Source: Candidatus Omnitrophota bacterium
GTDB lineage: Bacteria > Omnitrophota > Gorgyraeia > Pluralincolimonadales > Pluralincolimonadaceae
NCBI GenBank assembly: GCA_041651455.1
Contig: JBAZJG010000005.1
Coordinates: 3,882-67,881, forward strand
Direction: 5' to 3'
Length of the DNA stretch: 64,000 nt
The notes under the pieces are model-generated. The model searched no databases. It had not been told where the DNA came from and saw nothing but the letters and a program-made list of their open reading frames with translations. Each line of letters begins with the position of its first letter. Position 1 is the stretch's first letter. The position numbers and the translations under genes are program-made. Positions 28,065-60,630 of the stretch are shown here, piece after piece.

Positions 28065-28086
28065 TCAACCCAACAAGGAGGAGTAC

Positions 28087-28332: not shown

Positions 28333-28342
28333 CCCAGGGGGC

Positions 28343-28382
28343 AGGCCTACCTAATCCACTAAAGGTAGGGCCTATATTTTTT
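28343..28382 (+). terminator. Intrinsic terminator or attenuator between acpP and fabF
   Basis: The stem AGGCCTACCT / AGGTAG(G)GCCT (10 bp, one bulged G, 10-nt loop) is followed by ATATTTTTT. The T-tract abuts the fabF ATG at 28383, which has no visible SD. Confidence 0.55.
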
Positions 28383-29630: not shown

Positions 29631-29648
29631 CAATTATGGAGTAAAAAA

Positions 29649-30803: not shown

Positions 30804-31606
30804 ACATAATCGTCTGCATAAAACAGGTCCCCGATACGCAGGACATCAGGATAAACCCCGAGACGAACACGCTGATGCGCGAGGGCGTCCAGTCGATAGT
30901 CAACCCGTTCGACATGTACGCGATAGAAGAGGCGCTCAGGATAAAGGAAAAGGCCGGCGCCGCCACGACGAAGGTAACGGTGCTTTCGATGGGCCCGCAG
31001 CAGGCCGAGGAGGCGCTGCGCGAGGCGGTATCGATGGGCGTAGACGAGATGGTGCTGATGTGCGACCGCGCGTTCGCGGGTTCCGACACCTGGGCGACGA
31101 GCTATACCCTTGCCAAGGGCATACAGAAGCTCGGGAAGTTCGACCTTATAATATGCGGCAAACAGGCGATAGACGGCGATACGGCCCAGGTTGGCCCCGG
31201 CATCGCCGCCACGCTTGACATCCCGCAGGTGACTTATGTCAAGAAGACCGAAGAGATCAAGGAAGGTTCCGCGCGTTTCGAGAGGATGACCGAGGAGGGT
31301 TACGAGGTCATAGAGACGCCGCTGCCCTGCCTGATAACGGTCGTAAAAGAGATAAATATCCCGCGCCTCCCGTCCCTGAAAGGGAAGATAAAAGCGAAAC
31401 AGTCGAAGGCAGCGGTCATATGCGCGAAGGACATAGACGCGGACCCGGATAGGCTCGGCCTTAAGGGATCGCCTACCGTGGTCAACAAGATATTTTCCCC
31501 GCCGAAGAGGACGGGCGGCCAGATGCTCCAGGGGGAGGTCCCGGAGATAGTCGGCAAGCTGGCGGATTCCATCAAGGATGTAGTCATATCAGTGAGCAAG
31601 ACATAA
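30800..31606 (+). CDS. etfB: Electron transfer flavoprotein subunit beta
   Basis: [12 protein letters not shown].. is the N-terminus, with ..[18 protein letters not shown].. The length and context are typical of EtfB. Confidence 0.9.
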
Positions 31607-31607
31607 A

Positions 31608-32852
31608 ATGGCTGATAATAATTCAAGGGAATGTTCGATACAGATACTCGCGGATAAATGCACGGGCTGCACGCTCTGCGTGAAGGCGTGCCCGTTCGGC
31701 GCGATATCTATGAAGGATGACGCGCAGGCCAAGAAGGGCAAGCTCGCAGTAATAGATTTCGTTAAATGCACGCTCTGCGGCGCGTGCGTCGAGGCATGCA
31801 AGTTCAACGCGATCGAGAAGACCGTATGCAAAGTCCAGCCGAAGGTGCGGCTCGACGACTATAAGGGCGTATGGGTCTTTGCCGAACAGAAAAAAGGCAA
31901 AGTCCAGAGCGTAGCGTTCGAGCTCCTCGGGAAGGGCAGGGAACTAGCTAACGACCTCGGTGTGGAGCTTGCGGCGGTACTGGTCGGCGATAACGTAGCC
32001 AGCCAGGCGGACGAGCTTTTCTCCCGCGGCGCGGACAAGGTCTACCTTGTCGAAAGCCCGAAGCTCAAGGATTACCAGGACGAGCCCTACACGAACATAA
32101 TTGTAGAGCTCGTGAAGGAGTTCAAGCCCGAGATACTGTTGTACGGGGCTACATCGATAGGAAGGTCCCTCGCGTCGCGCATCGCCGTGAAGATATACAC
32201 GGGCCTCACGGCCGACTGCACAGGCCTCGCGATAGACAAACAGAAGAGATTATTATTGCAGACCCGTCCGGCGTTCGGAGGCAATATAATGGCCACGATC
32301 CTCTGCGAGAACTACCGGCCGCAGATGGCAACGGTGCGCCACAAGGTCTTTAAGGAAGCCGCCGTGGACAAGGCGAAAAAAGGCCAGGTTATCAAGAAGG
32401 ATTACCCGGGCAACATTTACGACTCACGCACGAAGATAACGAACGTCGTGGAAGAGCTGTCGGCCACGGTCAACCTTACCGAGGCGGACATAATCGTCTC
32501 CGGAGGCAGGGGGCTCGGAAAGGCCGAAAACTTCAAGGTAATAGAGGAACTCGCGAAAGTGCTCGGGGGCGCCGTGGGCGCCTCGCGTTCGGCGGTAGAC
32601 GCCGAGTGGATACCTTACTCGCACCAGGTGGGCCAAACGGGCAAGACCGTTTGTCCCAAGATATACATAGCGTGCGGCATCTCGGGGCAGATACAGCATC
32701 TTGCCGGGATGTCTTCCTCGGAGATCATAATCGCGGTCAATAAAGACCCCCAGGCGCCTATATTCTCCGTGGCGACCTACGGGATCGTCGGGGACCTGTT
32801 TGAGGTAGTCCCCGCGCTGACGCAGAAGTTCAAGGAGATCCTTAAAAAGTAG
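31608..32852 (+). CDS. etfA: Electron transfer flavoprotein subunit alpha with an N-terminal 2x[4Fe-4S] ferredoxin domain
   Basis: Two cluster motifs, CTGCTLCVKACP and CTLCGACVEACK, precede a normal EtfA body (..SGGRGLG.., ..YIACGISGQIQHLAGM..). Confidence 0.85.
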   Translation: MADNNSRECSIQILADKCTGCTLCVKACPFGAISMKDDAQAKKGKLAVIDFVKCTLCGACVEACKFNAIEKTVCKVQPKVRLDDYKGVWVFAEQKKGKVQSVAFELLGKGRELANDLGVELAAVLVGDNVASQADELFSRGADKVYLVESPKLKDYQDEPYTNIIVELVKEFKPEILLYGATSIGRSLASRIAVKIYTGLTADCTGLAIDKQKRLLLQTRPAFGGNIMATILCENYRPQMATVRHKVFKEAAVDKAKKGQVIKKDYPGNIYDSRTKITNVVEELSATVNLTEADIIVSGGRGLGKAENFKVIEELAKVLGGAVGASRSAVDAEWIPYSHQVGQTGKTVCPKIYIACGISGQIQHLAGMSSSEIIIAVNKDPQAPIFSVATYGIVGDLFEVVPALTQKFKEILKK

Positions 32853-32876: not shown

Positions 32877-34454
32877 TTGGCAGAAGTCCCGCTTAGCAGC
32901 ACAAGAGAGAAGATCCCTTTTACCTCAAGCATAAACTTCAGGTTCATCCTCATATTCATCCTGCTCGTCACCGTTACGACATTCCTCAGCGGCATCATAC
33001 TGATATACCAGGGCCAGAGGTCGCTCGAGGACGCGGTCCTCAAGAGGAACCTGACCGCGTGCGAGAATGTCCGCAGCAAGATAGAAAATTTTATACAGGG
33101 GGCCAAATCCTCCGTTGAACTGATGACCCTGATGCCCGGGATAAAAGACCTCGACCTTTTCCAGATAGACAAGATGATGTACGAGGTCATATCGGAGCAT
33201 GAGCGCCTGGACCCCGTGGCGGTCCTCAACGACCAGGGCATAATGATATCCTCGCGCAATCCCGCAGACCAGAACAAGGACATGTCCGGCAGCGATCTTT
33301 TCCTGAAGACCAAGAGCAAGAGCTACATATCGGACATATATTTTTCCTCCGACGGACAGCCGCTGATAACCATAGCGGCGCCGATATTCGATTACGACAG
33401 CTTCGGCAGGAGGATAGGCGTGCTTGTGACTGCCGTCAAACTTCGCAGCCTCTGGCCGACCCTCGACGGGACCAAGGTCGGGGAGAAGGGCATGATAGTG
33501 GTGACGGACAGGAAGGGCGAACTGGTCTACAGGTCCGGAGAAGTGAAGACGGGCAACGTCGGCAATGACAGGACCGTAAAGCTCGCGCTTGAAGGCAGGA
33601 CGGGCAGCGTAAATTACGGGAACATGCTAAGCTCATACATGCCGCTTACCGGGATGGTTACCGGGTCCGTGGTCGTTAAGCAGCCGGCAAGGGAGGCCCT
33701 TTACGGCGTGGCGAAGATGAGGAGCCAATCGATGATCCTGCTGGTCCTGAGCATAATGGTTGCCATCGCGATAGGCCTCGTGTTGTCGAACAGCATGCTC
33801 ATCTCGGTCAGGAAACTTCTTGTAGGTACGAAGATAGTCGCCGAGGGCGACCTCGGATATAAGATAGACATAAAGACGGATGACGAGATCGGCGAGCTCG
33901 CGAGGTCGTTCAACGCGATGACGGTCGAGCTCAAAAAGCAAAGGGAGCGGGCGATAACCGACGAGCTTACGCATCTCTATACGCATTCGTATTTCCTTGA
34001 GACGCTTAAGGCGGAGGTCTACAGGTCGAAGAGGTACAGGGTCCGCCTGTCGCTGATGATGCTCGACATCGACCATTTTAAGTCGTTCAACGACAACTAC
34101 GGGCACCAGGTCGGCGATGAGGTGCTTATCAAGATATCCGATATGCTGAAGTCGAGCCTCAGGGAATCCGATGTCGCGTCAAGGTACGGCGGCGAGGAGC
34201 TCGTCGTGCTCGCGGCCGAGACCGACAAGGAGGGAATATACATACTTGCCGAAAGGGTGCGCAAGAAGATCGCCGAGGACGTGATCGTCGAGTATGAGGA
34301 CAAGAAGCTAAGGGTCACCGTAAGTATAGGCGTCACGACACTTACCGAGGACGACATAAAGAGGGACATATTCCCGGATGACTTCCTGAAGCGGGTCGAT
34401 ATGGCGCTCTATAAGGCAAAGGACAAAGGAAGAAATTGCGTCGTACAATTATAG
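32877..34454 (+). CDS. Membrane diguanylate cyclase (TM, Cache-like periplasmic sensor, TM, HAMP, GGDEF)
   Basis: Two TM segments flank a roughly 250-aa extracytoplasmic region. The HAMP motif is DEIGELARSFNAM. The GGDEF domain carries an I-site plus A-site, RESDVASRYGGEELVVL. The start is TTG after AGGGGGA. Confidence 0.85.
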   Translation: MAEVPLSSTREKIPFTSSINFRFILIFILLVTVTTFLSGIILIYQGQRSLEDAVLKRNLTACENVRSKIENFIQGAKSSVELMTLMPGIKDLDLFQIDKMMYEVISEHERLDPVAVLNDQGIMISSRNPADQNKDMSGSDLFLKTKSKSYISDIYFSSDGQPLITIAAPIFDYDSFGRRIGVLVTAVKLRSLWPTLDGTKVGEKGMIVVTDRKGELVYRSGEVKTGNVGNDRTVKLALEGRTGSVNYGNMLSSYMPLTGMVTGSVVVKQPAREALYGVAKMRSQSMILLVLSIMVAIAIGLVLSNSMLISVRKLLVGTKIVAEGDLGYKIDIKTDDEIGELARSFNAMTVELKKQRERAITDELTHLYTHSYFLETLKAEVYRSKRYRVRLSLMMLDIDHFKSFNDNYGHQVGDEVLIKISDMLKSSLRESDVASRYGGEELVVLAAETDKEGIYILAERVRKKIAEDVIVEYEDKKLRVTVSIGVTTLTEDDIKRDIFPDDFLKRVDMALYKAKDKGRNCVVQL

Positions 34455-35668
34455 CGTTAGCCGCATTCGTCGCCGTTGCGGCGTTCCTGCCCGCGGAAGT
34501 CCTGGTCCGCGAAAGGGTCCTCAAGAAACCCGAGACGATCCAGAACATCGGCTTCACAAAAGGCACTACGGTGTATTTCGACGAATCCGGCAGGCTGCAA
34601 TTCGCGAGCCTCGGCGCCGACCAGCAGGTCGGGGGCATCAGGTTCGCTAAACGAACGTCCGTTTATTTCGACGGCTCCGGAAGGATCGATTATGTATACC
34701 TCGCCGCCGACCAGCAGGTGCTCGGGGTGGACGTAAGAAAGGGGACCTCGGTATATTTTACCAAGAACGGGAAGCTTGACTACATCATGGTCGCCGGTGA
34801 CGAAGAGATCGGCGGCCTTCTCTGTGCGAATGGCTCAAAGGCGGGTTTCTATGAGTCGGGAAAACTCCGGTATGCCACGCTCGGCAAGGACCAGCAGGTG
34901 CAGGGGATACCGTGCGCTAAGGGCTCAATAGCGGGTTTTTATGAATCGGGGAAACTGCGGCACGGGATATTATCAGATGACTCATGCGTGCAGGGCATAA
35001 TGTTCGCGAAAGGCACCTACCTTCTTTTTTATGAGACGGGCGGCATAAAGAGCGCATACCTCGTTGCGCCTACCGAAATAATGGGCATTACCTGCGCGAA
35101 CGGTCCGAGCGCGAGTTTTTATGAGAACGGTAAACTTGACTGGGCTGTCCTTGCGAACGTAAGCGAGGTCCAGGGGATATCATGCGCGAAGGGTTCGACG
35201 ATCGGGTTTTATAATACCGGAAAGCTCCAGTACGCTACGCTGTCTTACGAACAGGAAATCGACGGCATCGCATGCGCAAAAGGCGCGAAGGCCGGTTTTT
35301 ACCAGTCGGGTAAACTCCAGTTCACGACTCTTGCGGCAGACCAGCAGGTCTTCGGCATTCCTTGCGCAAAGGGCACGGTCGCCGGCCTGTATGAGAACGG
35401 CAAGCTGCAGTATGCGACCCTCAGCTCCGACAGGGAGATAAACAGCATACCCTGCGCGAAGGGAACGAAAGTTGATTTTTATGAGTCCGGAAGCCTGCAG
35501 AATGCTACGCTGTCCAAAGACCACAGGATAGGCAATATCGACTGTCCTAAAGGAGCAGTTGTCGGTATACGCGAATCCGGCACGCTTAAATACCTGATAT
35601 CCGAAGGGTCTAAGGCGAGTTTCGACGAGAACGGAAACCAGAGAGATATCGAAAAGACTGCAGATTGA
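34436..35668 (+). CDS. Exported tandem-repeat protein (12 x about 30 aa, MORN/YwqK-like beta-hairpin repeats)
   Basis: The TTG start lies 19 nt inside the cyclase gene, after an AAGGAAG RBS. The signal peptide is MRRTIIALAAFVAVAAFLPA. The repeat unit is G-I-x-C-A-K-G-x4-F-Y-E-S-G-K-L-x-Y-A-T-L-x3-Q-x-V. Confidence 0.75.
   Translation: MRRTIIALAAFVAVAAFLPAEVLVRERVLKKPETIQNIGFTKGTTVYFDESGRLQFASLGADQQVGGIRFAKRTSVYFDGSGRIDYVYLAADQQVLGVDVRKGTSVYFTKNGKLDYIMVAGDEEIGGLLCANGSKAGFYESGKLRYATLGKDQQVQGIPCAKGSIAGFYESGKLRHGILSDDSCVQGIMFAKGTYLLFYETGGIKSAYLVAPTEIMGITCANGPSASFYENGKLDWAVLANVSEVQGISCAKGSTIGFYNTGKLQYATLSYEQEIDGIACAKGAKAGFYQSGKLQFTTLAADQQVFGIPCAKGTVAGLYENGKLQYATLSSDREINSIPCAKGTKVDFYESGSLQNATLSKDHRIGNIDCPKGAVVGIRESGTLKYLISEGSKASFDENGNQRDIEKTAD
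34550..35629 (+). repeat. 12 diverged in-frame 90-nt tandem repeats within the CDS
   Basis: The protein-level period is 30 aa, for example GIPCAKGSIAGFYESGKLRHGILSDDSCVQ / GISCAKGSTIGFYNTGKLQYATLSYEQEID / GIPCAKGTVAGLYENGKLQYATLSSDREIN. The nucleotide copies are clearly diverged. Confidence 0.8.
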
Positions 35669-35705: not shown

Positions 35706-35734
35706 TTGACGACCTTCCGTACGCGTAATACAAT
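35706..35734 (+). promoter_or_regulatory. Sigma70-type promoter of the HTH / triple-TolC / GT48-like operon
   Basis: TTGACG (35706-35711), a 17-nt spacer, then TACAAT (35729-35734). A GGAGGAAGGAG RBS (35749-35759) precedes ATG 35767. Confidence 0.6.
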
Positions 35735-35766
35735 TATATACGAAATATGGAGGAAGGAGAGTCTAT

Positions 35767-35961
35767 ATGGACATAGGCGCGAAATACATAACTATGGAAG
35801 AGGTCGTGAATTACTTAAGCCTTAGCGAGGGCAGTATCCGTAAACTTATACGGGAACAGAGTTTCCCGCACGTAAAGGTGCTCAGGAAATATCTGTTCAA
35901 TAAGCAGGATGTCGACGCGTGGCTTAAGATGCATTCACAGGGCCTAAGGGCAAATAAGTAG
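35767..35961 (+). CDS. Small helix-turn-helix DNA-binding protein (excisionase/MerR-superfamily HTH_17 type)
   Basis: The 64-aa product ..ITMEEVVNYLSLSEGSIRKLIREQSFPHVKVLRKYLFNKQDVDAWL.. matches the 'helix-turn-helix, excisionase family' pattern. It is the first gene of the operon. Confidence 0.7.
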   Translation: MDIGAKYITMEEVVNYLSLSEGSIRKLIREQSFPHVKVLRKYLFNKQDVDAWLKMHSQGLRANK

Positions 35962-35985: not shown

Positions 35986-38900
35986 ATGCTAAGCCAAAAT
36001 TGTAAGAAATATATTATATCATTATCCATCGCGCTCGCGATGTCGTTTCCGTCGATGTCGTGCCCCGGGGAATTAGATTACAATAAGCTTTCGCTTGAAG
36101 CCGCGCTGAACAGGATGTATGAAGTAGACCCCGAAATACAGATAAGCAGACTCGCATGCGATGCGTCCCTCCTCGAGATAAAAGCAAGGAAACTCGATAC
36201 ATTCATGCCGAAGCTCAGCGTCGGCGTCAGTATAGTCAAGCCGGTCGATATCTTCACGAAACTTGACCAGCAAAAAGAGATGTTCTTTGAACAGCAGGTT
36301 ATCATAGAATTCGCCGTGACCTCAAACAGCTTCAACCATATCCTTAAGGACAGGAAAGGGTACGAAGCTAGCATGCTCGAATTGAAGCAGGCGGTTTCCG
36401 AAAGGAGCCGTGAGCTCATCACCGTATATTACGCCGTCGCAAGGGCCCAGGAGAATTACAGGTCCAGCTGCGATAACATCGAGACAGTCGAGAAGGTCCT
36501 GAAGATGGTCGAAAACAGCAATGAATATACGGACGTCGAAAAACTCGAGATAAGGAACTATCTTGCCGTGGTCACGGAAGAGAAGTTAGGCGCGCTGAAT
36601 ACGCTCATCAATACGAGAAGAGACCTCCGCGGGCTTCTCGGTCTGGAGAACAGGGAAGATATCGATATAACCGTCGAGGAACTGCCTGATAATATCAACA
36701 ATGACATCGCCTTCTATGAAAACCCGTTGATAAGGCCGGCGGATTACACCCTCGACATATATAAGAAAAGGGGTGAGGCTGCGGACGTGGCCTCCCGGAT
36801 CAGCGCGTCTCCCTTATTGAAATTTTCTTCCGCGACGATCCTCGGCATCGCCGAGGGCAGGTTCACGAAACTCCAGAAGAAAGTGATAACTGATACGGGA
36901 GTGGAGTTGCATATAACCGACTTTGGCTATACCGGAGGCCTCAATGATGTAAGCAAGATTAATTCGCAGATAGCGAGGTTGGAGGTATTGAAAGCAGAAG
37001 AGGACCTTGAGTATTCGGATTTAATAGCGAACGGCAAACTGGCCGAACTAAGCGGCCTAATAGATAATTACAGGGAATACATAACGAAGACGGAAGACAT
37101 GTTGAGGATGTTCAGGGAACGCCTCTCCTTGCCGGTCATCGAGATAATAAGGATGAACGATAATCTCTATAAGGCCAAGTATGCGATGCAACAGGCGCTC
37201 GTCGATTATACGGTCATGCTCTCGAACCTTAAAGGTGTCGAGCTGAAACCCGAACAGACCAGCCCTCAATACCAGGATATGAGCTTGGAAGACCTGCTTG
37301 CGAGGGGCGAGAGGAGTGACATCCTGACCGTCAAACAGATATCCGAGAAGAAGATGAGGATGGAAAACGTCAGGATCAACGCGACAAAGGCCGGATATTT
37401 CCCGAAGATCACCGGTGCGGCCATACTTGAGAACGCGAACATAGACGGCGTGCCGTCGCAGGCTACGAGGGCTTACGTTGCGCTTGAAGGGCAGCTCTTT
37501 AACTTCAAGAACGGGCAGGCCATCAGGGCAGCGAAGGCCAGCATGGAAGAAATCAGGTACGAGGGCGCCGCGCTGCAGAACGTGGTCGCGGATGAGATAA
37601 TAAAGAACTACCTGTTCATATTAAGGAGCAAGAATACCTTAAAATGGCTGAACGAGATCAAGGGGATAAAAGACGACATAATACGCGATATGCTGGAAAA
37701 TATGGAAGGCAAGGGCCCCAAATATAGTAATTCGGATATACTGCCGCTGGTCCTGCAGCAGATGGAGCTGGACAGGATGATGGCGGATGCCGAGTTCTCG
37801 CTGGCGGTCGTCGAGTATAGCCTCAAGAAATGGACCGGCATACCGCTCAACGAGACGATAAGCGTAAAGGAGCTCCCGGCGTTCGGGGAGGACGAAGGGC
37901 TCTCAGGGTTCATGGCGCTGATCCGGTCCAAGGTGGCGCCGTATTTCGACGGTAAGGCGCCGGTAAAACAAGCCCTGAGCGCCGTCGAAAAGAACAGGGC
38001 GGAAGAGGCGCGGGCCGTCGCGTATGATGGGGCGCTGCTCCAGGTAAAATGCGAGACGAAGGGCATGGAATATAAGGGATGGCATGATCCCGACAGGCAG
38101 GTGTCTTTCAGCGTCTCCGTGCCGTGGGGCGACCGCAGGGAAAAGATAGCCAGGTCTGAGGCGGCGAGGACCCGCATCAAGTCGGAGATCGAGTATTTGA
38201 AGAGCATGGATGCTTATGAAAAAGAGAGGTTATCCGTCAAGACCTCCTACGATTCATCGAAAGCGCTCCTTGAAGACCTGCGCAGCAAGAAGGAGAATAT
38301 GGAATCGCAGTACAGGATAACCGAGGAACTTTACCGGTTCGGCGGCCGGACAAAGAAGCAGATGGTTGATTCCAAGCTGGATTTCATAGTAGCGCAGATG
38401 AGCTATGAGGAAGCCGTCCTTGACAACTATTACCACAATGCGAGGGAGCTGCTGGTAGTGGAGAAAGATGCGGAACCCGAAGGCAGCGAAAGGATATTGC
38501 TGGCCGGATTGCAGGAAGCGATAGACCTTGCCATGCAGAACAGCCGCGAAATAAGGAAATACGAGGAGAGCCTCAAGCTCGAGAAGGAAACATTGGATTA
38601 TTACAAGACGGTGAGGATAAAGGGCGATATCGGAGGGGATTCCTATATAATAGATAACAAGGGCTGGAATGAGACAAAGAGGGTCAAGACCGCGGGGATC
38701 GTCGCGACCGCCGACATTGACCTCGTGAACAAATATATGGTGAAAGTCCAGCAGCGCAGGATCGAGCTTGCCGAAAAGGACCTCGAGCAGGCGAAGTTCG
38801 ACCTGACCCTGAAGGTCGCGGATGCCTACTCGGGCTACCTCGGTTCGCTCGCGGAGACCTCGGAAGTCCGCAAGGAATACGAGAGGCAGAAGACGGTCCT

Positions 38901-39795
38901 GGCGGAAATGGAAGAGCTTTTCAAGGCGAAAGCGATAGCGCATGTGGACCTGCTGAAGCAGAGGGAGTTCGTAGAGAGCCTTCTGCAGAAGTACATCGAC
39001 ACCAACAGGTATACCGAAGGGCACAGGAACAGCCTCGGCATTGCCGTCGGAGGCCTCGACCCGAGGTTTTCGGTCGTGAACACCGAGGTTTACGACAAGT
39101 CCGCCCGGCGCGTCGCGCTTACGGAAGATTTCGAGATCAAGCAGAGGCTGTTGGACGAGCTTACATCCGCGAGGCAGGCGCTCCAGGGACTGCTGCAGGA
39201 TGATCTGCTCAAGCGCGCGGAGATCAAACTCGACATGGCCAGGCTTGATACCCAAGCTATATCAAAACAGGTAAAGACGCTCGCGGTCAACCTCGAGTAC
39301 ATATACCTTACGGATTTCATGGGACTAATAATGAGGGATGAAGCCGCCTTCTCGCGTTATGACAACATGTCGGAGTTTTTCTCGCTGAACTCCATAGACC
39401 AGATATTCAATCCCGCCACCGGGACTAAGGCGAGGATTGCGGCGATAAGCGAGAAGGTCGCGGCATTAAGGTCGAAGTCATATACGAAAAACGTTGTCCA
39501 GGACGCGTTGAGGAGGTTTACCGATTACCAGGTGGCCGTGGCCGATTACGCCAACTACGAGAAGAACGAAACGGTGCTGGAAAACGAGATGGCCGAGAAG
39601 ATGCGTATGGAAGAGGCGGCAGGGAACACGGCCCTGATCAGGCAGAGGGAGCTAAAAGAGACGATACTTAACAACAAGATAAAGAAGATACAGGCATTCT
39701 ACAGGATGATGAAATTTATGAACGAACTGGACCGTTATCTGATAAGATATACTTCAAAAGGCATAGAATCATACGTAACATTCGTCACAAAATGA
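35986..39795 (+). CDS. Giant TolC-family outer-membrane factor with about six OEP-type repeats (three TolC-protomer equivalents in one polypeptide)
   Basis: The 1269-aa product has an N-terminal signal-like segment (..LSIALAMSFPSMSC). TolC-style module starts occur at aa ~35 (LSLEAALNRMYEVDPEIQ), aa 432 (MSLEDLLARGERSDILTVKQ) and aa 838 (LLAGLQEAIDLAMQNSREIR). Each is followed by long heptad-rich helical hairpins and short Gly/aromatic beta segments. Confidence 0.65.
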   Translation: MLSQNCKKYIISLSIALAMSFPSMSCPGELDYNKLSLEAALNRMYEVDPEIQISRLACDASLLEIKARKLDTFMPKLSVGVSIVKPVDIFTKLDQQKEMFFEQQVIIEFAVTSNSFNHILKDRKGYEASMLELKQAVSERSRELITVYYAVARAQENYRSSCDNIETVEKVLKMVENSNEYTDVEKLEIRNYLAVVTEEKLGALNTLINTRRDLRGLLGLENREDIDITVEELPDNINNDIAFYENPLIRPADYTLDIYKKRGEAADVASRISASPLLKFSSATILGIAEGRFTKLQKKVITDTGVELHITDFGYTGGLNDVSKINSQIARLEVLKAEEDLEYSDLIANGKLAELSGLIDNYREYITKTEDMLRMFRERLSLPVIEIIRMNDNLYKAKYAMQQALVDYTVMLSNLKGVELKPEQTSPQYQDMSLEDLLARGERSDILTVKQISEKKMRMENVRINATKAGYFPKITGAAILENANIDGVPSQATRAYVALEGQLFNFKNGQAIRAAKASMEEIRYEGAALQNVVADEIIKNYLFILRSKNTLKWLNEIKGIKDDIIRDMLENMEGKGPKYSNSDILPLVLQQMELDRMMADAEFSLAVVEYSLKKWTGIPLNETISVKELPAFGEDEGLSGFMALIRSKVAPYFDGKAPVKQALSAVEKNRAEEARAVAYDGALLQVKCETKGMEYKGWHDPDRQVSFSVSVPWGDRREKIARSEAARTRIKSEIEYLKSMDAYEKERLSVKTSYDSSKALLEDLRSKKENMESQYRITEELYRFGGRTKKQMVDSKLDFIVAQMSYEEAVLDNYYHNARELLVVEKDAEPEGSERILLAGLQEAIDLAMQNSREIRKYEESLKLEKETLDYYKTVRIKGDIGGDSYIIDNKGWNETKRVKTAGIVATADIDLVNKYMVKVQQRRIELAEKDLEQAKFDLTLKVADAYSGYLGSLAETSEVRKEYERQKTVLAEMEELFKAKAIAHVDLLKQREFVESLLQKYIDTNRYTEGHRNSLGIAVGGLDPRFSVVNTEVYDKSARRVALTEDFEIKQRLLDELTSARQALQGLLQDDLLKRAEIKLDMARLDTQAISKQVKTLAVNLEYIYLTDFMGLIMRDEAAFSRYDNMSEFFSLNSIDQIFNPATGTKARIAAISEKVAALRSKSYTKNVVQDALRRFTDYQVAVADYANYEKNETVLENEMAEKMRMEEAAGNTALIRQRELKETILNNKIKKIQAFYRMMKFMNELDRYLIRYTSKGIESYVTFVTK

Positions 39796-42700
39796 GCGGG
39801 AATATGTCAAAGAGCGGCAAAAAAATAGCCATAGTGCTGGTAGCGGTCGCGGCCATCTTCATCACGGCGCGCTCGTGTATGCACCGTTCCGCGGATGTAC
39901 GGGACGCGGCCGGCACACAGCAACCGATCGCAGCCGGTGCCGCGCGTACAGATAACCCGCTCGACCATGCGCGGCAGCGCGATTCGGCTTTAAATGCCGG
40001 AGAATTGATATCCTTCATATTGGAATGGACCAACCCGGAGACCGGGCTGGTGCCTACAATCATATCAAAGAGCGGGCAAAAGAACCCTTTTGCCGACCTG
40101 TCTTATACGTACGCGCAGGCGGTTGCGCACCAGAACCTCATAATTGCGGGATCAAACGACAGGTCGCAGGCCGCCGCGGAGATATTCAGGCAGAGGGGAG
40201 AGACGAGGGATATACCTAACTGCTTCAACGTCCGGACCGGGTTTAGCGAGGACCCTTTGGTAACTGCCGGGCCAAACGCGTACTGGGGCATAAGTTTCAT
40301 AAGGGAATACAAGGCAACCGGCGACGAAAAGTGGCTTACGGCAGCAAAGAGGCGCGCAGATTTCCTGCTAAAACTGCAGACGGATGACGGCGGGATAAGA
40401 AAGAACCCCTTCCAGGGCAACGCGGAATATAAAGCCAAGTCGACAGAGGAGAACCTCGATTGCTATGCGCTGTTCGTGATGCTTTCCGATATCACAAAGG
40501 AGAATAAGTATGCGGTTGCCGCGTCCGATGTGCTCAAATGGCTTGCGGAAAGCGGTGTATATGACATAGAAGCGGGTTATTTTATCGCAGGCACATCGGA
40601 TGATCAGATGAACCCGTTGTATGCAACAGACGCGAACGCGCTCGCTATCATAATACTCGGCCCTGAGCTGCTCGATTCAGAAGGCAAGGTCCGGTTCGGC
40701 GGGGCCGGCACAAGCCGCAGGATCCTGGACAGCCTTGATGCGGCCAAGGTCAAAGTAGATTATCTCCATCCGTCCGGCGTCACGATAAAAGACCTAGAAG
40801 GATTCGATTTTACCGACAAATTCGGCAGGCCAGGCAGGAAACCAGTCCTGAGCCCCGAGTTCACTTCCCAGGCGGTGCTGGCATATCTGGTAATGGCAAG
40901 GCACGCGAAAGAGAAAGGAGATGCCGAGTATTCGGCCAAGCTGATCGAAGACGCGCGGCGTTATCTCGATAACCTAGGGAGGATGGCAGCGCGCACAGGG
41001 AAGTCGGCGTCACTGCCTTATGCCTCGGAGAAAGGGATTAGGCGTTATCCGTTCGACAACTGGCTGACGCCGCAGGGAGATGCGGATATATCGGCGACAT
41101 GGGCGTCATTCCCATTATCGGGATTCAATCCGTTCGCGCTTGAAGGGTTAGGGCTGCGTGATGCGCTGAAGGACTCCGCGGAATGGATGTCCGATACGGG
41201 TGAGGTCATAAAGCCCGAAAAAGCTTTCGTTATCCCCGAACCGGAGAAGATCATATCCGAAGCAGAGCTCATTGCCCAGCAGGAAGCGGCAAGGGAAGAG
41301 GCGATGAGGAAGCCGATCGTGTATTATAAGGTCCTTTACGACCAGGTCAATAAGGATGCGACTATTGCGAGAAGGAGAGTGATAGCCGTCCTGATGACAA
41401 GCTACAATTGCTGGTTCGACGGCGTGCTGGATACGGCGTCGCGGGACTATGACGTGATCGGCGTTGACGGGAATTATAAGGTTTTCTACAAAAGATTCCA
41501 GGACCTTCCGGAAGCGACAAGGAAAGCCGTGCAATCGGAATATGCCTATTTTGACGAGCCAACCGGCATAAAATGGAGGATGGCCCCGAAATACAATTTG
41601 TATCTAGACGGGCAGTATAAGCCGTATTATGCCTTCGAGATAGACGGCGATTACAACATAATCAGGCAGTTTGCGTCCGAGAGCGACATCCCTGAAGAGA
41701 ACAGGGCCGATCTCAAGAGCGCAAAAGCCCAATTCCAGTCCTCCCGCGGCCTTCCCGAGGGCCATCTTATAGCAAGGTATTTCACCGCGCTCGAAGTGGA
41801 CGACGAGATGAATATAACGAACTATTACGAAGCGATAGATGACCTTCCCGGCCTTGTCTCTAAAGTCCCGATAAGCGAGGATGAGTTCAGGAGGTATATA
41901 AAGGCGAAGGACTGGGAGAGGCTGGACCTGGTCTCTGCTGGCATCATACCTGATGAAAAAGGGATGCTTGCCGTACAGGAGAGAGGTATGTATTACGCAA
42001 GGGTCCTCGGCCTCGATGAGACGAGGAGGCTGCGTGTCGGTGGTGTCTCCGTAGCCAGCGGACGCGAGATAATCATGGGAACGAGGTTCAGTCTTACTAA
42101 CTGGCGCATAGGAGAGGCATCGAAAACTAACGCCGTCAAATACGAGATCGGGCTCATAAAAGGCATGGTCATAAAGCCGCGTGAACAGTTTACCGGAAGC
42201 GGCCCTTCACCGACGCAGCCGCTTTGGATATACCTCGGGGAAGATATGATCGCGTCCGAGACCGCGGAATTCAAGAGAAGGCTCATGAGCTTGTTGAAGC
42301 GCATCAAATCAGAGAAGGATGCGCAGACACGCCTCGAGCTCGTGGAACAATACGACCGGTTGGCCGGAGAGCTCGCCTGGTACGACGAGAACGGGTTCAT
42401 ACATGTTATCTATTATGGTGTAAAAGCTGCCGAAAAGAGGTTCGGGGATTTTGCGTCGGCAAAGGCAAGAGCGGAGAACAGCCTGAGGACCTACGAATCG
42501 ATCCTGGGTAAGGACCAACTCGGGCGGGACCTGCGCGATTCATACGGCCGCGTATGGCTAAAGGTCATAAACGAGGCGACCGGACGCATATTATACGTCG
42601 AGGTCTATGATATGGCGGGAAATCTCGAGACGATATATTCCGGGAAAATCGATATCGACCCGCTAACTAAGGAGGTCAGGTCCGAAATAAGGACCGATCT

Positions 42701-45700
42701 CGAGTACGACAAGGAGACCCTGCAGGTAGTCGGCAGCCACACATACCGCACGGACGAGAACGGGGATTGGGTGTCCGATATATCCGAGAGCATATTCAAA
42801 GGGTATACGCCCGACAAGAAGTATTTCGTTTCGGAGGTGCATATATTCGATAGGGACGAGGACGGCAGGATAATATTCGAGGACGGGAAAGCCAGGTATA
42901 CAAAGAAGATAGAATATTACACGCCTGAAGGCGATATATCGGCCCAGATGGTGAAGAATATAATTACTATAGTCAAGTACGGCGCCAACCATGAGGTCGT
43001 GAAAGAGGTATTTCTCGAGCGGCCCGGAAAGGTCCTGACAGGGGAGAACACGAACCTCGATAACCTGACGCAGGGCCTTGCGTGGGTCCGCAGGTACAAG
43101 ACGACAGGCAAGATCTTGACTTTCAAGGATTCGCTCGTGAAGTCCCTGACATCGCTGCCGGAAGAAGAAAGGGAAACGGCCGCGCTGCTGATATTGAACA
43201 GGCTCGGCGCGGAGAAGGTGGGCAGGATCAGCGATATCCTTATGCTGGAAGAGAACGAGGTCACGAACAACCTGACCGGCGACCCTGCCGCGGCCGGGGA
43301 GGCGCCCTATTTTGTGTTCTATGAACCGGGCGACAGTTTAGGCCGGCAAAGGCTCATAGTGCGCGGCGGTACGATGGAGGTCCCCGTTGACTGGATAGCC
43401 GAGGCCGATATACCTTCGAAGACGCTCACCTTCAACCTTGCCGGTGAATTGGTCTCGATAAGCGATGTCGACAGCTCTGTCCGCGCGGATTCCGTACTGC
43501 CTCCCGGATATATAGAAAGGATGGCGCCGCTCGGTATCAACGCCGATACGCTGCTGCCCCAGATGAAGAAGAGGATATTCAGGATGGTGACCGGCGAGGA
43601 CGGCCTGCCGCATTTCACGAATACGGTGGCCATAACGACGGTCAGCTACATGATACCCGACGACGTTCTCGGCAGGGAGCTCTTGAATGTCAAGTTTGTC
43701 ATGCTCGGGGACGAGACGACGCTCCACAGCGGCAGCGCGCTGAAGCTCAAGCGAAATATATTCGGCAGGGACACGCTTATCGAGTCGTGGAAGGACGAAA
43801 GGGGCGAGGCCCGCACCCGTGCTATAGCCAAGAAAGAGGATACCGTAGTATATGAATGGTATAAGGAAGGCCTCGGCACCGGCGAGCTGCGAGAGCGCCT
43901 GAAGTCCGAATGCGGCAAGATCGTGAAACGCAAGATACTGGAAGAGGCGCTTGAGAACGTCGCGGAGGCGCCGTTCGGCACAATGCCCGGCTATCACGTC
44001 ATAAAGCCGAACGGGCGTATAGGCGAGATCAAATATTTCTCCGGCACAGTCGAATATCCGCGCAGCGTCTTCAGTCATCCCGGGGTAAAGGTGCCTTATG
44101 AGACGGAAGCGCCGCCGTTCAAGCTTCCGGACGGTCCCCTGATAAGGGGAGTGAAATACGGCGTGTTGAATTCCGATTACGCGTTCTATGACGTGCATTC
44201 GCTCAGCGGCCAGCTGATAGTCCTCGAACGCCGTTTCATAATCCTGCGCCTCATGAACATACTGCCGGTGCAGGGCGGCAGGCAGACTGAATATTATGAC
44301 CCGCTCGTCCCGTATTCATACCTGAGGCCGATAAAGATAGAAAGGGATTTCAGGCCCGGCACACAACCCGAGGGCACGCAGCCGGGCACCCAGATCGTTG
44401 CGGTCTTTATCGGCGATGCGAGCATCTACCACCGTAACGGATGGCAGACCCAGACTTTCCTCGAGAGGAGGCCGTTCGATATAGAGCACTGGATACGCTC
44501 TGATTACGAGTTCGACGATAACGGCGTATATAAGTTCAAGAAAGAGCATATCGAAAGCAGTTCGATATACCTGATGAGGTCTATAAAATGGCAGAAGCCG
44601 CTAGCTTTCTTCGCGTTTGTGGCAGGCCTCTTCTTCCTGGCCGGGTATGTCTCGCGCAGCAGGCTTAAGGCAGGTAAGAGGTCCAGGATGGCTGTCGCGC
44701 GTGCGGCATCGCGGCCGTTCAGCAGGGAAGTGCTTGCGCGGCTCTCGGTACCTGAAGAGCTGAAAGCCGCCTGTATAAGGGTTTATGAAGGACATGAGCC
44801 GGTATCGGAACTCTTCGCCGCATCCGAAAAGGTCTTCAGGCCCAGGATCGAGGAATGCCTTCGCGGTTTCGGGGCCGACCCTGCCGGACATACGGCAAGC
44901 GTAAATGTCCTGCTGGACAGGATCGCGTGCCGGATCGGAAGGGAGGATATAAATTTAAGCAACCTGTTCGCAGTTGAAGCGAAAGAGTTCGGGGAATGGT
45001 CTAAGAAGAACGGGCATTCCGTCAACATTGCCGCAGGCAGGCCCGGCAGGGACGACCTGTCGGTGATAGTCCTCTTCAGGCTGGTATTCGACGAATCGAT
45101 GGAATTCAGGGCCGCCGTCACCGGGTTCAGGAATTACCTGCTCGATAAGTCGCTCGGGCTCCTTGACGAAGGCAGGAAAGGCGATATATTGCGCGAGATA
45201 CGCGGCGATACTCTCGCTTTCCTCGAGGCCTTAAGGCCTGGTTATGACAGGAAGCTCGGGCTCACTAAGGAATATATATTCACGTATGATGACATGAGCG
45301 AGCTCTTTGAAGGAAAGAGGCCAGGTTTCATCGCCTCATTCTCCCAGCTGGCAGGAAAGACCGCCGAGCAAAAACTCTCCTGGCTCGCGTCAAGGGCGGG
45401 CAAGGATGCCGCCGCGGACGTGAAGTCATACAAGAGCTACATATGGCTCAAGACGTTCCCTGATAAGGCCGGCGTTCCGCAGTTCGTCTGGAACCTTAGG
45501 CGCTTCTGGGAATTTCTCGTGCCGATGTTCGCGGCAGTGACTCTGGGCGGCGTAGCGATAGCCCTGAAACGGATACCGTTCGCCCAACGCCTCTCCGGTG
45601 CGATGGGCCCGATAGGAGCCACCTTTGTCGAGGTAACGGCCCTGATATTTATCGGCCTCATCATAACTATGGCCTTCAAGAGGCGGACACTCGGCGATTA

Positions 45701-48700
45701 CAGGCCCGCGCTGAGGGATGCGGCCGGGAGCAAGGAGCTCAGGCGCTCGATCAGGCTGTTCTGGATAATGTTCGGCTCGGCTTCTTATCTCTGGGGCCTC
45801 TTCAGCATATTCGTGATAATCTGGACCGTCAGGATCATAAGCAAACTCACGTTCGTGAGCGCCGGATGGGGCCTGTTCATCAACGTGAGCGCGCTGCTGC
45901 TCACCTTCACGTTCATACTGTCGAGCTTCTTCTCGCTCTTTTATATCATAATAGCGTTGATAGGGTTTTACCGCGGCAAGAGGGAAGGCATCGGCCAGGT
46001 CATATCATGGGCCCAGATGAGGAGGAAGTTCGAGGCATCCAGGCGGTGCTTCGGGCAGATCATCACTCCGTCCGAAGCGTTTTGGAAATCATATTGGAAT
46101 TCCATGATAACGGAACTCTACGATTATTATGTCATCAGTGCCGCGGAGAGGGATGGGCTGGTTTATTCGGAAAAGAACGCGGTGCCGAAGCTATCCTCAC
46201 AGCCGCGTGCCGAAGAGGCCTCCGAAAGGATGCGCCTGTACGTAAACAGCTGGCTTATGGAGATGCCGAAGGCATGCTCCTGGAACGACCTGCCGACCTT
46301 CACGGCAATGGTAACGGCTTTCAATGAGCCGGTAAGCTTCTCGTTCGACGAGCTGAACGGCTGCGACAGGGGGGCCGAGGTCACGAGGCTTAACCACCTG
46401 ATCGGGTTCTATAGGCCGCAGTGGGAAGAATTTGTCGGCAGGCTAAATTCCGCCGACCTCGGGCATTATATCACGAGGGAACAGCTAAAGCTGCTCTTCG
46501 GCCTGAAGAAGCTGCCCGAAGGGCTCCCTGAACAACTGAAGGAAAAGATCAGGAAGTGGGCAAACCTGACGGTCCAGTGCGTCGAGAAGACGGCCGTGGA
46601 GGTATACAGGATACGCGACGCTTTCGCGGCATACGCACGGGCCTGCTATCCCGGAATCTCCGAGAAGGCGGTATCGGAGATGGTCTCTGATAAGGTCCAG
46701 ATACTGCTGAATTACGAGGGCTACCACAGCGCCGCGACCCGCGATTCCGACAAGGAGGCCCTGAGGAGGATCATGAAGGAGCTCCCGTTCCTTGACGTAT
46801 ACTGGGCGGCGCCGGAAGGCGACGAGAAGGGAACGGACCGCGGGCTCCACCGCTATAACCCGTCGACAGACAGCATAGAGCTTATAGAGACCGCGCCGTT
46901 CACCTCCACGGTCAAGAAAGGCAAGCCGAGCGGGCTGAACCAGGCGCTGCCGTTCGTGAAGGGCGAGACGGTCCTTTTCTTCGACGCGAACTGCTCGGTC
47001 AGGATAGAGGACGCCCTGAAACTGCCCGTCGCGCTTTCCGAGTTCGCGGACGACCCGTCGCTCGGCGAAGTCCTGTTCGCGGAATACATATTCAACAAGA
47101 ACTACTCCTGGATCTCCCAGGCGATAGGTTTCAACGAGGAGACCTTCGTTTCGGTGACCCAGAGGACGCTTAACATCTTCCAGGCCTGCGGTTTCTACGG
47201 CCACAGCGCGATAATAAAGACAGACATGATAACCGCGGCCTGCGGCCTGCCGCAGGATTACATATCGGAGGACATACTCCTTGCCACGGCATTATGGAAA
47301 AAGGGCCTGAGGACCTCGCACAAAGAATACCTGACCTTCGGGAAGGGCAGGGAGACCTCGTATTTCACGAGCCTCGTGCCGCTGACGAAGTGGGCGATGG
47401 GTTCTTCCGACGCCGCGATAGGCCGCGTCATGCGCGGCATACTCGATTCGAGGAATGTCCATGTCGCGCAGAAGTTCATGCTGATGTTCGGGTTCTCGTT
47501 CTTCTACCAGACCCCGCTGATGTTCGTGATAAACTTCCTTTACCTGTGGCTGATGATCTGCTGGGGCATAAACGGTTTCATGGCGGTCCCGTACCCGATA
47601 GTCTTCGGTATCCTCGGCCTGCTCTTCAACCAGGCGATAACCGCTACCGGCGTCGCGTACCTCGTGGAACATTACGGTTTCAGGAAGTCCTTCTCCGCAT
47701 ACATGAAGCTTGTCGCGAAGAACCATTTCTTTTACGCGTCGGTCATACCCGCGTACGCGTTCGGTTTCCTCGCAGGCCTGAAGGGAAAGGCAGTCTTTAT
47801 CATAAGCCCGAAGGGATGGAACCTGGGCCACCTGCCCCTCAAGACGATATGGGGGGAGAAGAGGGCCATACTGAAGGCGGCGCTCTTCAGCACCATGGTA
47901 GGCCTTCCGCTCGCATACCTGTTCGTGTCGACCGAGACGGTCCCGTTATGGATAAGCCCGTTCATACCGTTCCTGCCGTTCGCCGTAGTTGCGGCTATGT
48001 ACTTGGCCGGCCTCAGGTGGAAAGAGACGGGATTGGGTTTCCTGAAGGATTGGCGCGACGAGATAGTCCCCGACGGCGACATCCGCAAGATGTCCGTCAT
48101 AAAGCTGCAGATGATATACGCGATGGTCTTGCTTGTCTTCACGGGAGTCGGCTTCGTCATGTGGGGCCTTATATTCTCATCCCTGGCGGTCAAGGCGCTG
48201 TTCATATTCTCGGTCCTTTACATAAGCACGACGCTGTCGTTCATAATAATGCCGCTCTTTGCGCATTCGCAGCCGGTCGCGCTGTTCAAGGAGATAACGA
48301 TATCCAAGTTCTGGAATTACGCGGTGATACCGATGCTGCTGGCGAGCATTGTTCTCGGCGCGGTCTCTATAATGTCGAGCCCCGCGACGGCATCGCCCGA
48401 ATCCGTCGTCTATACGCTTCTCGGCATATCGATGCTTGTCGGATGGGCGCTGCTTAAGTGGAAGCTCAGCGGGTATGCGAGGCTTGACAGGTGGCTCAGG
48501 CAGAACCTGGCCGGATACGCATCCTCTTCGCCGGTACGCAAAGCCGACCTCATGGATGACATATACTTCGCTCACCAGGAGTTGATCCAGAGCGACAGGC
48601 AGGAGGAGCTTAAATACAGCAGGAAGGCCGGGAAGGCCAAAGCCGTGTTCGTGTTCACGCTGTCGGCCGCGTTGCTGATGTATTTCACGTCGGAATTCTA

Positions 48701-59019: not shown

Positions 59020-59027
59020 AATTTTTC

Positions 59028-60610: not shown

Positions 60611-60630
60611 ATAATTTTCAGGAGAAGGAA

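Follow-up and report, generated by a model that had tools for sequence, protein, structure and literature searches.

Background

What does an exported protein built of equal repeats do when its gene starts inside the gene for a membrane-bound diguanylate cyclase? The question is raised by a 64,000-nucleotide stretch of DNA from an uncultured Omnitrophota bacterium (contig JBAZJG010000005.1; the whole stretch is called the window here). A first-pass annotation of this DNA had suggested that the two proteins are made together, and that the repeat protein may serve the periplasmic Cache domain of the cyclase as a ligand-presenting or scaffold partner. In the present study, we analyzed the repeat protein, its relatives, and the genes that accompany it.

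Results

The repeat gene and its coupling to the cyclase gene

The upstream gene (32877..34454, + strand) encodes a sensor diguanylate cyclase of 525 aa, in which Pfam and NCBIfam models indicate a transmembrane segment, a periplasmic dCache_1 domain, a second transmembrane segment, a HAMP domain, and a GGDEF domain. A partial NCBIfam match to DgcN/YfiN covers the HAMP-GGDEF part. The I-site is RESD and the active site is GGEEL (GGEEF in two orthologs). A protein 100% identical to the cyclase, P0164, has the source name "diguanylate cyclase [Candidatus Omnitrophota bacterium]".

The second gene (34436..35668, + strand) has a TTG start and encodes an exported repeat protein of 410 aa. Upstream, the frame has a stop at 34412, and the only other possible start is the GTG of codon 45, the use of which would delete the signal sequence. 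Orthologs of 410-424 aa are present at six loci (L004, L005, L011, L091, L092, and L096). Comparison with orthologs gave dN/dS values of 0.09-0.12 at a dS of about 0.5; judged from these substitution rates, purifying selection acts on the gene, and the possibility that 34436..35668 is not a real gene is ruled out. It is a genuine gene for an envelope protein.

The cyclase stop codon TAG lies at 34452-34454, so that the overlap of the two genes (34436 to 34454, + strand) is exactly the 19 nt that had been annotated. The putative translational-coupling site (34425..34454, + strand) consists of the Shine-Dalgarno-like sequence AAAGGAAG and the TTG, both of which are embedded in the cyclase codons for K-G-R-N-C. 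The motif GG(A/G)A(G/A)AAA-TTGCGTCGT is kept in L004, L005, L091, L092, and L096, and also in L093 despite a different downstream gene. The coupling is conserved down to 63-66% identity of the cyclase and about 51% identity of the repeat protein, and the conservation of the Shine-Dalgarno sequence, the TTG, and the overlap supports the suggested co-production with the cyclase. Two further cyclase orthologs (P0170 and P0171) are each followed by some gene, with the 19-nt overlap in one of the two. The coupling site lies in a conserved C-terminal motif of the GGDEF protein and stays constant while the partner gene is swapped; it is an example of a reusable translational-coupling socket.

The N-terminus of the repeat protein (about residues 1-20, MRRTIIALAAFVAVAAFLPA; 34436..34495, + strand) is of the export type and is conserved in orthologs, in line with the export that had been proposed. 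With the proposed cut written as MRRTIIALAAFVAVAAFLPA|EV, it contains two Arg and a hydrophobic core 15 residues long, and the residues ahead of the cut are small. It looks like a Sec signal, or it may be an uncleaved signal anchor that stays in the membrane; the AF2 model has a low-confidence helix at residues 2-16.

The repeat array

Residues 35-394 (34538..35617, + strand) form twelve consecutive 30-aa units without gaps, as seen in the sequence, the periodicity, and the AF2 model. Both this number and the unit consensus agree with the first-pass annotation. The self-identity of the protein is 0.452 at lag 30 and stays at 0.415-0.417 for lags of 60, 90, and 120. After shuffling (2,000 times), the value at the best lag had a mean of 0.107 +/- 0.007 and a maximum of 0.139; the 30-residue periodicity far exceeds chance. 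TRF detected no tandem repeat in the gene at the DNA level, and the repeat exists in the protein only; the units are therefore old and diverged. Among orthologs with about 51% identity, the array has exactly 12 units and zero indels, and orthologous units share 15.8 identities per 30 positions versus 11.6 for paralogous units. Unit 12 is followed by a degenerate 13th half-unit (KASFDENGN), which together with the tail makes up the C-terminal SFDENGNQRDIEKTAD (35618..35665, + strand; from sequence and ortholog comparison).

An AlphaFold model had been suggested as a check, and the AF2 model obtained here (pLDDT 90.3) has four short predicted beta-strands per unit. In this model, the unit appears to be all-beta and to combine a MORN_2-type hairpin with a mini-hairpin of 8 residues. 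A hydrophobic face is conserved (unit positions 1, 4, 6, 12, 14, 23, and 25), as are two aromatic residues in each unit, F14 and Y15. As modelled, the fold suits scaffolding.

Eight of the twelve units have a Cys, as annotated, at unit position 6 of units 4, 5, and 7-12; the residue at this position is F in units 1, 2, and 6 and V in unit 3. The ninth Cys of the protein, residue 184, shows no conservation. The stress that had been placed on a conserved Cys is misleading, however, as the slot is C in 41%, F in 35%, and L in 12% of 177 units from 96 relatives, and in orthologs the Cys is singly replaced by L, A, or I. Judging from these substitutions, the slot that the Cys occupies is hydrophobic, and a disulfide or metal site is unlikely. 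Such single replacements argue against paired disulfides or metal sites, and a disulfide, metal, or redox role was rejected given the interchange of C, F, and L at that position.

A large family related to MORN_2

The likeness to MORN variants that had been noticed is real: the whole protein scores 35.4 bits with Pfam MORN_2 (PF07661; gathering score 29.6; E 6.6e-9). At the level of individual repeats the likeness did not hold, as none of them alone passes the 22-residue model. The match is confined to the F-Y-E-x-G-K-L core of the unit; its best stretch is residues 223-234 (GPSASFYENGKL), which align with positions 3-14 of the 22 in the model. The relatives P0015-P0039 score 20-63 bits. MORN_2 repeats have a period of 22-23 residues (PMC4222103), whereas the period here is exactly 30. 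The longer period is family-wide, with 30 as the modal spacing in relatives (265 of 646 spacings; 361 of 646 within 28-32). The repeat protein and MORN_2 proteins share the hairpin core F/Y-Y-x-N/S-G-K-L, and like the MORN2 proteins of Fusobacterium, the repeat protein is exported and, as modelled, has all-beta tandem hairpins (PMC4222103). In contrast, its unit carries an added segment, D-Q-x-(I/V)-x-G-(I/V)-x-(C/F), with four predicted strands in place of the two of MORN_2, and the copy number is fixed in its orthologs but variable in MORN_2 proteins.

Relatives were collected by an exhaustive profile search and a genome scan, with a consensus three-unit sequence as the metagenome query. A word-indexed homolog search returned only 14 distant proteins and missed the window protein and its 89% orthologs. 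The proteins with the 30-aa period (about 1,700 clusters at 50% identity, mostly exported) form a large family without a name, which current models catch marginally, as MORN_2. Most members begin with a signal or lipoprotein sequence, and their gene contexts are varied, as expected of a general binding scaffold. No NCBIfam family matches the repeat protein, and searches of PDB sequences with the protein and a unit profile gave no match even at E<=10. Foldseek against PDB gave only generic hairpin-repeat matches with TM <=0.25 (TcsL/TcdA CROPs, Rhs/teneurin, OspA, and alternansucrase domain V), which we do not take as homology. Our literature search found nothing on the 30-aa repeat family, and we know of no function for any bacterial MORN-like protein.

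The family suggests one alternative, in which the repeat protein is secreted or lies at the surface as a matrix protein, and acts as an adhesin or binds glucan in the manner of a lectin. It would be co-expressed with a biofilm polysaccharide without belonging to the machinery. In addition to the MORN_2 similarity and the signal sequence, the tandem paralog arrays of the family in L016 and L025, the conserved aromatic residues in each unit, the Foldseek matches to the carbohydrate-binding TcdA CROPs and alternansucrase domain V, and the presence of GH5, GH10, and GH116 (with malectin) glycoside hydrolases among family neighbours are consistent with such a role. Moreover, the MORN2 proteins of Fusobacterium, which are exported and expanded as tandem arrays, have been proposed to be adhesins (PMC4222103). 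However, repeat counts of adhesins vary fast, whereas the number is fixed at 12 here. CW_binding and other lectin-repeat models do not match the protein even at E<=1, the TM-scores of the Foldseek matches concerned are just 0.1-0.2, and no outer-membrane anchor or secretion signal beyond Sec is present. We judge a matrix role distinctly unlikely.

A conserved four-gene module

A sigma-70-like promoter (TTGACG, 17 nt, TACAAT; 10 of 12 positions by consensus match only; 35706..35734, + strand) lies between the repeat gene and a gene for a small HTH_17 protein of 64 aa (Pfam; 35767..35961, + strand). The HTH gene is present in the window clade and L091, and is missing from the operons of L092 and L096. 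It is followed by a gene for an OEP/TolC-like outer-membrane factor of 1,269 aa (35986..39795, + strand). Each third of this factor matches OEP, and self-BLAST showed no internal repeat. The next gene, the start of which overlaps the OEP stop by 4 nt, encodes a GT48 (FKS/callose-type) glucan synthase membrane protein of 3,075 aa with an N-terminal GH76-like domain (39792..49019, + strand). Because the HTH gene and the promoter-like site precede the outer-membrane and GT48 genes, the tightest coupling of the repeat gene in the window is to the cyclase.

The order of dCache-HAMP-GGDEF cyclase, repeat protein, OEP/TolC-like protein, and GT48 glucan synthase is conserved in L091, L092, and L096. 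Their cyclases are 83%, 66%, and 63% identical with the N-terminal Cache query and 86%, 70%, and 66% over the full length. Each cyclase gene shares the 19-nt overlap with the gene that follows, which encodes a 12-unit ortholog of the repeat protein (414, 424, and 420 aa, respectively). Next are OEP proteins of 1,267-1,298 aa (76%, 38%, and 37% identical) and GT48 proteins of 3,038-3,086 aa. In L092, where no HTH gene intervenes, successive genes of the module overlap by 19, 4, and 4 nt. Thus the repeat protein is co-operonic with a glycan synthase and an outer-membrane component in the window and in these three loci. The upstream flank differs, with a small secreted protein in place of ACAD/ETF; therefore conservation applies to the module and does not extend to its wider surroundings. 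A search from the GT48 side gave four matches, on contigs that end short of the upstream genes. We detected no PilZ domain in the GT48 or OEP protein at E<=0.01, and the module may have a c-di-GMP receptor of a non-PilZ type. Neither bacterial GT48 nor an Omnitrophota operon of this kind came up in our literature search, and the review literature examined treats GT48 enzymes from eukaryotes only.

At L093-95, a cyclase ortholog of 62% identity, the most distant in our comparison, is encoded at a locus that continues directly into CvpA-NIF3-DnaG-RpoD, with no repeat, outer-membrane, or GT48 gene. Here a multi-TM gene with TPR occupies the slot, with the same TTG-CGT-CGT overlapping start. The joint absence of the three genes agrees with a module, in what is a single lineage; the outer-membrane and GT48 genes could be elsewhere in its genome.

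Omnitrophota genomes are compact, genes in the window often overlap by a few nucleotides, and family contexts elsewhere are heterogeneous. The adjacency might on these grounds have no meaning, the product being a general exported repeat protein or acting through the Cys discussed above. However, the gene order and the 19-nt overlap persist at dS well past saturation of the flanks, and do so despite the different upstream context. We consider this explanation very improbable.

A further possibility is that the repeat protein is a dedicated partner of the Cache domain that toggles or tunes c-di-GMP synthesis, by ligand presentation or by repression and release, in parallel with the action of YfiR on YfiN and NspS on MbaA. 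Regulation of membrane cyclases by periplasmic proteins is established, as in YfiBNR (PMC2837407, PMC3375315). Both the cyclase and the repeat protein have periplasmic parts, the overlap and the embedded start are strictly conserved in all orthologs examined at the DNA level, and in the window clade the transcription unit of the cyclase ends with the repeat gene, after which the promoter-like site follows. The survey of co-occurrence with Cache-GGDEF genes, proposed with the first-pass annotation, gave a divided answer: the linkage is kept in one Omnitrophota clade, but the family loci that are not orthologous (86 loci, about 0.5 Mb) all lack a GGDEF neighbour. Furthermore, the outer-membrane and GT48 genes always accompany the repeat gene in the clade (L091, L092, and L096), the 62% cyclase ortholog has the same Cache domain and coupling site followed by the TM and TPR protein, and the repeat protein has no homology to YfiR or periplasmic binding proteins. 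A dedicated Cache partner is thus not favoured, and we regard it as unlikely, although it deserves to be kept in mind.

Discussion

A proposed periplasmic scaffold for glucan synthesis and export

We tentatively favour the explanation that the repeat protein serves, in the periplasm, as scaffold or adaptor for a module of glucan synthesis and export that is linked to c-di-GMP. From the conserved coupling and four-gene linkage of this export-type repeat protein, we infer that the scaffold role and the binding partners given here are the most likely ones. The protein would be an elongated beta-sheet rod in the periplasm, made in step with the cyclase. The rod may bind the periplasmic parts of inner-membrane components (the Cache domain, the GH76-like domain of the synthase, or both), and may also bind the outer-membrane channel, the nascent glucan, or both, thereby filling the role held by TPR scaffolds or membrane-fusion adaptors in known systems. 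To our knowledge, no polysaccharide system has a MORN-like scaffold or a TolC-like channel, and the scaffold analogy is therefore without precedent.

A more speculative extension, which we hold to be doubtful, is that the four genes constitute a new trans-envelope polysaccharide machine, with the GT48 synthase, of fungal/plant type, in the inner membrane, a TolC-like conduit in the outer membrane, the repeat protein as adaptor or ruler, and the cyclase supplying c-di-GMP locally. The OEP protein could then be three TolC protomers in one chain, as its matches in each third might suggest. The fixed 12-unit, 48-strand beta-meander, with a length of the order of 20 nm if flat, would be a rigid periplasmic adaptor or ruler that ties the sensor, synthase, and channel together and guides the glucan across. 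As far as we know, TPR scaffolds and membrane-fusion proteins are the only proteins with such a role to date.

One member of the repeat family now has a concrete context, a conserved, coupled operon with a Cache cyclase, a TolC-like protein, and GT48 in uncultured Omnitrophota. If the proposal is true, the combination of bacterial GT48, c-di-GMP, and a beta-repeat component would widen the known polysaccharide secretion systems, and also the repertoire of local c-di-GMP signalling.

Comparison with known envelope systems

The locus resembles YfiR-YfiN (TpbB) and NspS-MbaA in that a periplasmic protein is encoded beside a membrane sensor-HAMP-GGDEF cyclase (PMC2837407, PMC3375315). However, the repeat protein is related to YfiR or NspS neither in sequence nor in fold, and the GGDEF linkage is missing in the rest of the repeat family. 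The G-box of CPAP/SAS-4 (TCP) and the central sheet of OspA are elongated beta-meanders; they have no sequence relation to the repeat protein, which differs from them in its conserved hydrophobic face.

In synthase-dependent exopolysaccharide systems, the N-terminus of BcsC, AlgK, and the N-termini of PgaA and PelB are periplasmic TPR scaffolds. The likeness is that of a periplasmic repeat protein in an operon with a glycan synthase, an outer-membrane exporter, and c-di-GMP signalling (here judged from the genes), and in one relative a TPR-bearing protein takes the slot of the repeat gene. In contrast, the repeat protein is predicted to be composed of all-beta hairpins and not of alpha-helical TPR, the synthase in the window is GT48 and not GT2, the outer-membrane protein is OEP/TolC-like and not a beta-barrel porin, and the module in the window has no PilZ match. 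Thus the pairing of a TPR-type scaffold with a beta-barrel porin is not the arrangement found in this module.

AcrA and HlyD are membrane-fusion, or periplasmic adaptor, proteins of TolC-dependent tripartite systems. Like them, the repeat protein is encoded alongside a translocating enzyme of the inner membrane and an outer-membrane factor of the TolC family, and has an N-terminal signal or anchor and, according to the model, an elongated periplasmic body of defined length. HlyD-family domains (biotin-lipoyl, alpha-hairpin, and beta-barrel) were absent from the repeat protein in Pfam and NCBIfam searches at E<=1. Unlike AcrA and HlyD, it would have an all-beta repeat fold, and its cargo would be a glucan.

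The repeat gene and its overlapping start

The open reading frame of the repeat protein (34436..35668, + strand) begins with TTG inside the gene of a dCache_1-HAMP-GGDEF cyclase (32877..34454, +). The cyclase TAG stop lies at 34452-34454, so that the two genes overlap by 19 nt, in agreement with the coordinates and start proposed in the first-pass annotation. An in-frame stop is present upstream at 34412, and the sole alternative in-frame start, a GTG, lies 45 codons further on; its use would remove the hydrophobic N-terminus. In the cyclase, the Cache domain covers approximately aa 45-280, the I-site (RESD) is intact, and the active-site motif is GGEEL, which reads GGEEF in two orthologs. The window cyclase is 100% identical to a protein named by its source as Candidatus Omnitrophota. 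A genome scan found full-length orthologs of the repeat protein (89% identity) in two MAGs, of which one carries the label Candidatus Omnitrophota and the second the label Planctomycetia. Against these orthologs, dN/dS of the repeat gene was 0.09-0.12 at dS of approximately 0.5, slightly more relaxed than that of the cyclase (0.06-0.08) and of ETF-alpha (0.03-0.04). The TTG, the Shine-Dalgarno-like AAAGGAAG and the 19-nt overlap are all kept in orthologs, and the Shine-Dalgarno and start codon are encoded within the K-G-R-N-C codons of the conserved GGDEF-domain end. These sequence comparisons show the repeat gene to be real. Separately, a word-indexed search of a 5.8-billion-protein collection returned neither the repeat protein nor its 89% orthologs, whereas the adjoining cyclase was present at 100%; either the TTG-start overlapping gene had been left uncalled or unstored in the case of these MAGs, or it escaped the index.

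The twelve-unit array and the long-period repeat family

Residues 35-394, after the N-terminal MRRTIIALAAFVAVAAFLPA/EV, consist of twelve 30-residue units with zero gaps, as had been claimed for the region after the signal. Self-identity at lag 30 was 0.452, and the highest value among 2,000 shuffles was 0.139. TRF detected no DNA tandem repeat in the gene; thus the units are old. The only significant Pfam match was MORN_2 (35.4 bits; gathering score, 29.6), and no single unit passed this model alone. The best stretch placed model positions 3-14 of 22 on G-P-S-A-S-F-Y-E-N-G-K-L, and thus unit positions of approximately 9-24 equal the MORN_2 hairpin. The remainder of the unit, D-Q-x-(I/V)-x-G-(I/V)-x-(C/F)-x-K, is approximately 8 residues longer than its MORN_2 counterpart, which accounts for the length of 30 instead of 22 residues.

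When a two-unit profile was searched exhaustively, 1,705 cluster representatives matched at E<=1e-3, including 146 at E<=1e-30. The spacing of successive units in 163 retrieved proteins had a sharp peak at 30 (265/646; 361/646 at 28-32) with a harmonic at 60. The 30-residue period therefore marks a large family and is not peculiar to the window protein, and the suggested likeness to MORN variants with a longer period was upheld. NCBIfam contains no model for this family, a PDB sequence search found no chain matching the repeat protein, and no description of the family was found in the literature searched. Most family members on contigs start with Sec or lipoprotein signals, and others bear extra modules (a VWA domain, a weak beta-propeller-like C-terminus, or a multi-TM N-terminus). 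Zixibacteria-type proteins of approximately 424 aa (P0005-P0013) have a multi-TM N-terminal domain, followed by four or five units at the C-terminus; some contain longer inserts rich in Cys. Some family genes form tandem arrays of 3-4 paralogs; in metagenome contigs (L016, 4931-7034; L025/L026, 2898-7905), three or four paralogous genes in tandem each carry a near-identical signal peptide (MIRKRLLVLGLCLCLF...).

The AlphaFold2 model of the repeat protein, built with 15 sequences (pLDDT 90.3, pTM 0.78), is all-beta, each unit having four short strands of 3, 3, 4 and 6 residues. Foldseek against PDB found only hairpin-repeat proteins of low TM (0.25 or lower). We read the model as an elongated MORN-type hairpin meander with an extra mini-hairpin per unit; a flat arrangement of its 48 strands would be on the order of 20 nm long.

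The single Cys noted in 8 of the 12 units is at unit position 6. Among 177 ungapped units from 96 relatives, this position is C (41%), F (35%), L (12%), Y (5%) or V (3%), and it falls in register with the remaining conserved hydrophobic positions (1, 4, 12, 14, 23 and 25). In the six orthologs, single position-6 Cys residues give way to L, A or I; an additional cysteine, Cys184, is not kept. We take position 6 to be a packing slot. The possibility that this Cys serves in disulfides, metal sites or redox was also considered; it is unlikely, given the interchange of C, F and L and the single replacements in orthologs.

A conserved four-gene module

Orthologs of the cyclase Cache region were found in three related Omnitrophota contigs at 83% (L091), 66% (L092) and 63% (L096) identity. 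Each is followed, with the same 19-nt overlap, by a 12-unit ortholog of the repeat protein (414, 424 and 420 aa; approximately 73%, 51% and 52% identity), then by an OEP/TolC-like protein of 1,267-1,298 aa and a GT48 protein of 3,038-3,086 aa. The overlaps between the four genes of L092 are 19, 4 and 4 nt. The upstream flank of L092 and L096 is a small secreted protein in place of the ACAD-ETF genes; thus the conserved thing is the four-gene module.

In the window, the OEP/TolC-like protein (35986-39795, +; 1,269 aa) exceeds TolC approximately threefold in size, and each 423-aa third gave a separate OEP match. This one chain may correspond to three TolC protomers. Self-BLAST found no internal repeat, and thus any triplication would be ancient. 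The GT48 protein (39792-49019, +; 3,075 aa) matches Glucan_synthase of the fungal FKS and plant callose synthase type (86 bits, aa 2139-2587) and has a GH76-like domain at its N-terminus; no PilZ domain was detected in it. A Candidatus Aureabacteria MAG encodes a homolog at 44% identity. In a recent review, GT48 is discussed from the fungal side, and its regulation by Rho1 is set against the c-di-GMP control of BcsA in bacteria (PMC12715860).

Between the repeat and OEP genes of the window, there are a sigma-70-like promoter (TTGACG, 17 nt, TACAAT; a near-consensus match at 10/12 positions) and a 64-aa HTH_17 gene (35706-35961, +). Both are absent from the otherwise identical operon of L092 and L096, and this insertion probably splits the module of the window clade into two transcription units. 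Directly upstream of the cyclase (27324-32852, +) are FabG-like and FabF-like genes, then genes for acyl-CoA dehydrogenase, ETF-beta and a ferredoxin-fused ETF-alpha. The cyclase start lies only 24 nt past the stop of ETF-alpha; thus co-transcription of the cyclase and repeat genes with these fatty-acid/ETF genes is possible in the window clade. Just after the GT48 gene is a 459-aa ORF (49012-50391, -) with no Pfam match, and further downstream are two tRNA genes and a bacterial class-A RNase P RNA (215 bits) at 58943-59101 and 60279-60612 (+).

A cyclase ortholog at 62% identity in Omnitrophica WOR_2 (L093) has the identical TTG-CGT-CGT overlapping start, which is used there by a multi-TM and TPR gene. 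In both L093 (4049) and the window (34425-34454), the Shine-Dalgarno and TTG of the downstream gene lie within the conserved GGDEF C-terminal K-G-R-N-C-V-V-Q. This start (M-R-R) acts as a putative reusable coupling socket, at which the partner has been swapped for an unrelated one in WOR_2. The WOR_2 locus, which has no OEP or GT48 gene, goes straight to CvpA-NIF3-DnaG-RpoD, which in the window come after GT48. Thus, among the ortholog loci, the repeat gene goes with OEP and GT48 no less consistently than with the cyclase.

The first-pass annotation had linked the repeat protein with the cyclase and suggested a ligand-presenting or scaffold role at its Cache domain. In our co-occurrence survey, the linkage was present within the clade of cyclase orthologs but did not extend across the family: among 90 loci (575 kb) with family members, GGDEF was found only in four near-identical orthologous loci, to which window-type OEP and GT48 neighbours were likewise confined. 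Neighbours at the other loci were heterogeneous, and included PilZ, SpoIIE, secretin, GH5, GH10, GH116, Trans_reg_C regulators, peptidase M99 and many unknowns. A periplasmic partner of the Cache domain is a viable reading of the repeat protein, with YfiR-YfiN and NspS-MbaA as established analogues (PMC2837407, PMC3375315). We do not favour it as the sole function, and it could be one facet of a scaffold.

Possible function and comparison with known systems

The best-supported reading is that the repeat protein is a periplasmic scaffold or adaptor of a c-di-GMP-linked module for glucan synthesis and export. What the sequences show is an N-terminus of export type, an array fixed at 12 units, and conservation of both the translational coupling and the linkage of the four genes. 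The mature protein, which would be aa 21-410, would bind the Cache domain, the periplasmic GH76-like domain of the synthase, the glucan and/or the TolC-like channel. Candidate sites for such an interface are units 6-7, which carry atypical Y-L-L-F, A-P-T and D-W stretches that orthologs conserve. A matrix protein of adhesin or lectin-like type could also be considered, as an adhesin role has been proposed for Fusobacterium MORN2 proteins (PMC4222103); however, this is less likely because the repeat number is fixed. No description of a bacterial cyclase/TolC-like/GT48 operon was found in the literature searched. In itself, the repeat protein is of moderate interest, which would rise should the operon turn out to be a secretion system of a new type.

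Compared with MORN_2 proteins, the repeat protein belongs distantly and appears to work alike, but it departs from them in its period and in the failure of its repeats to match end to end, both of which are defining features, and thus its family is best named a long-period MORN_2-like variant family. Compared with TPR scaffolds and membrane-fusion adaptors, it would fill the same functional place, although the folds are not shared.
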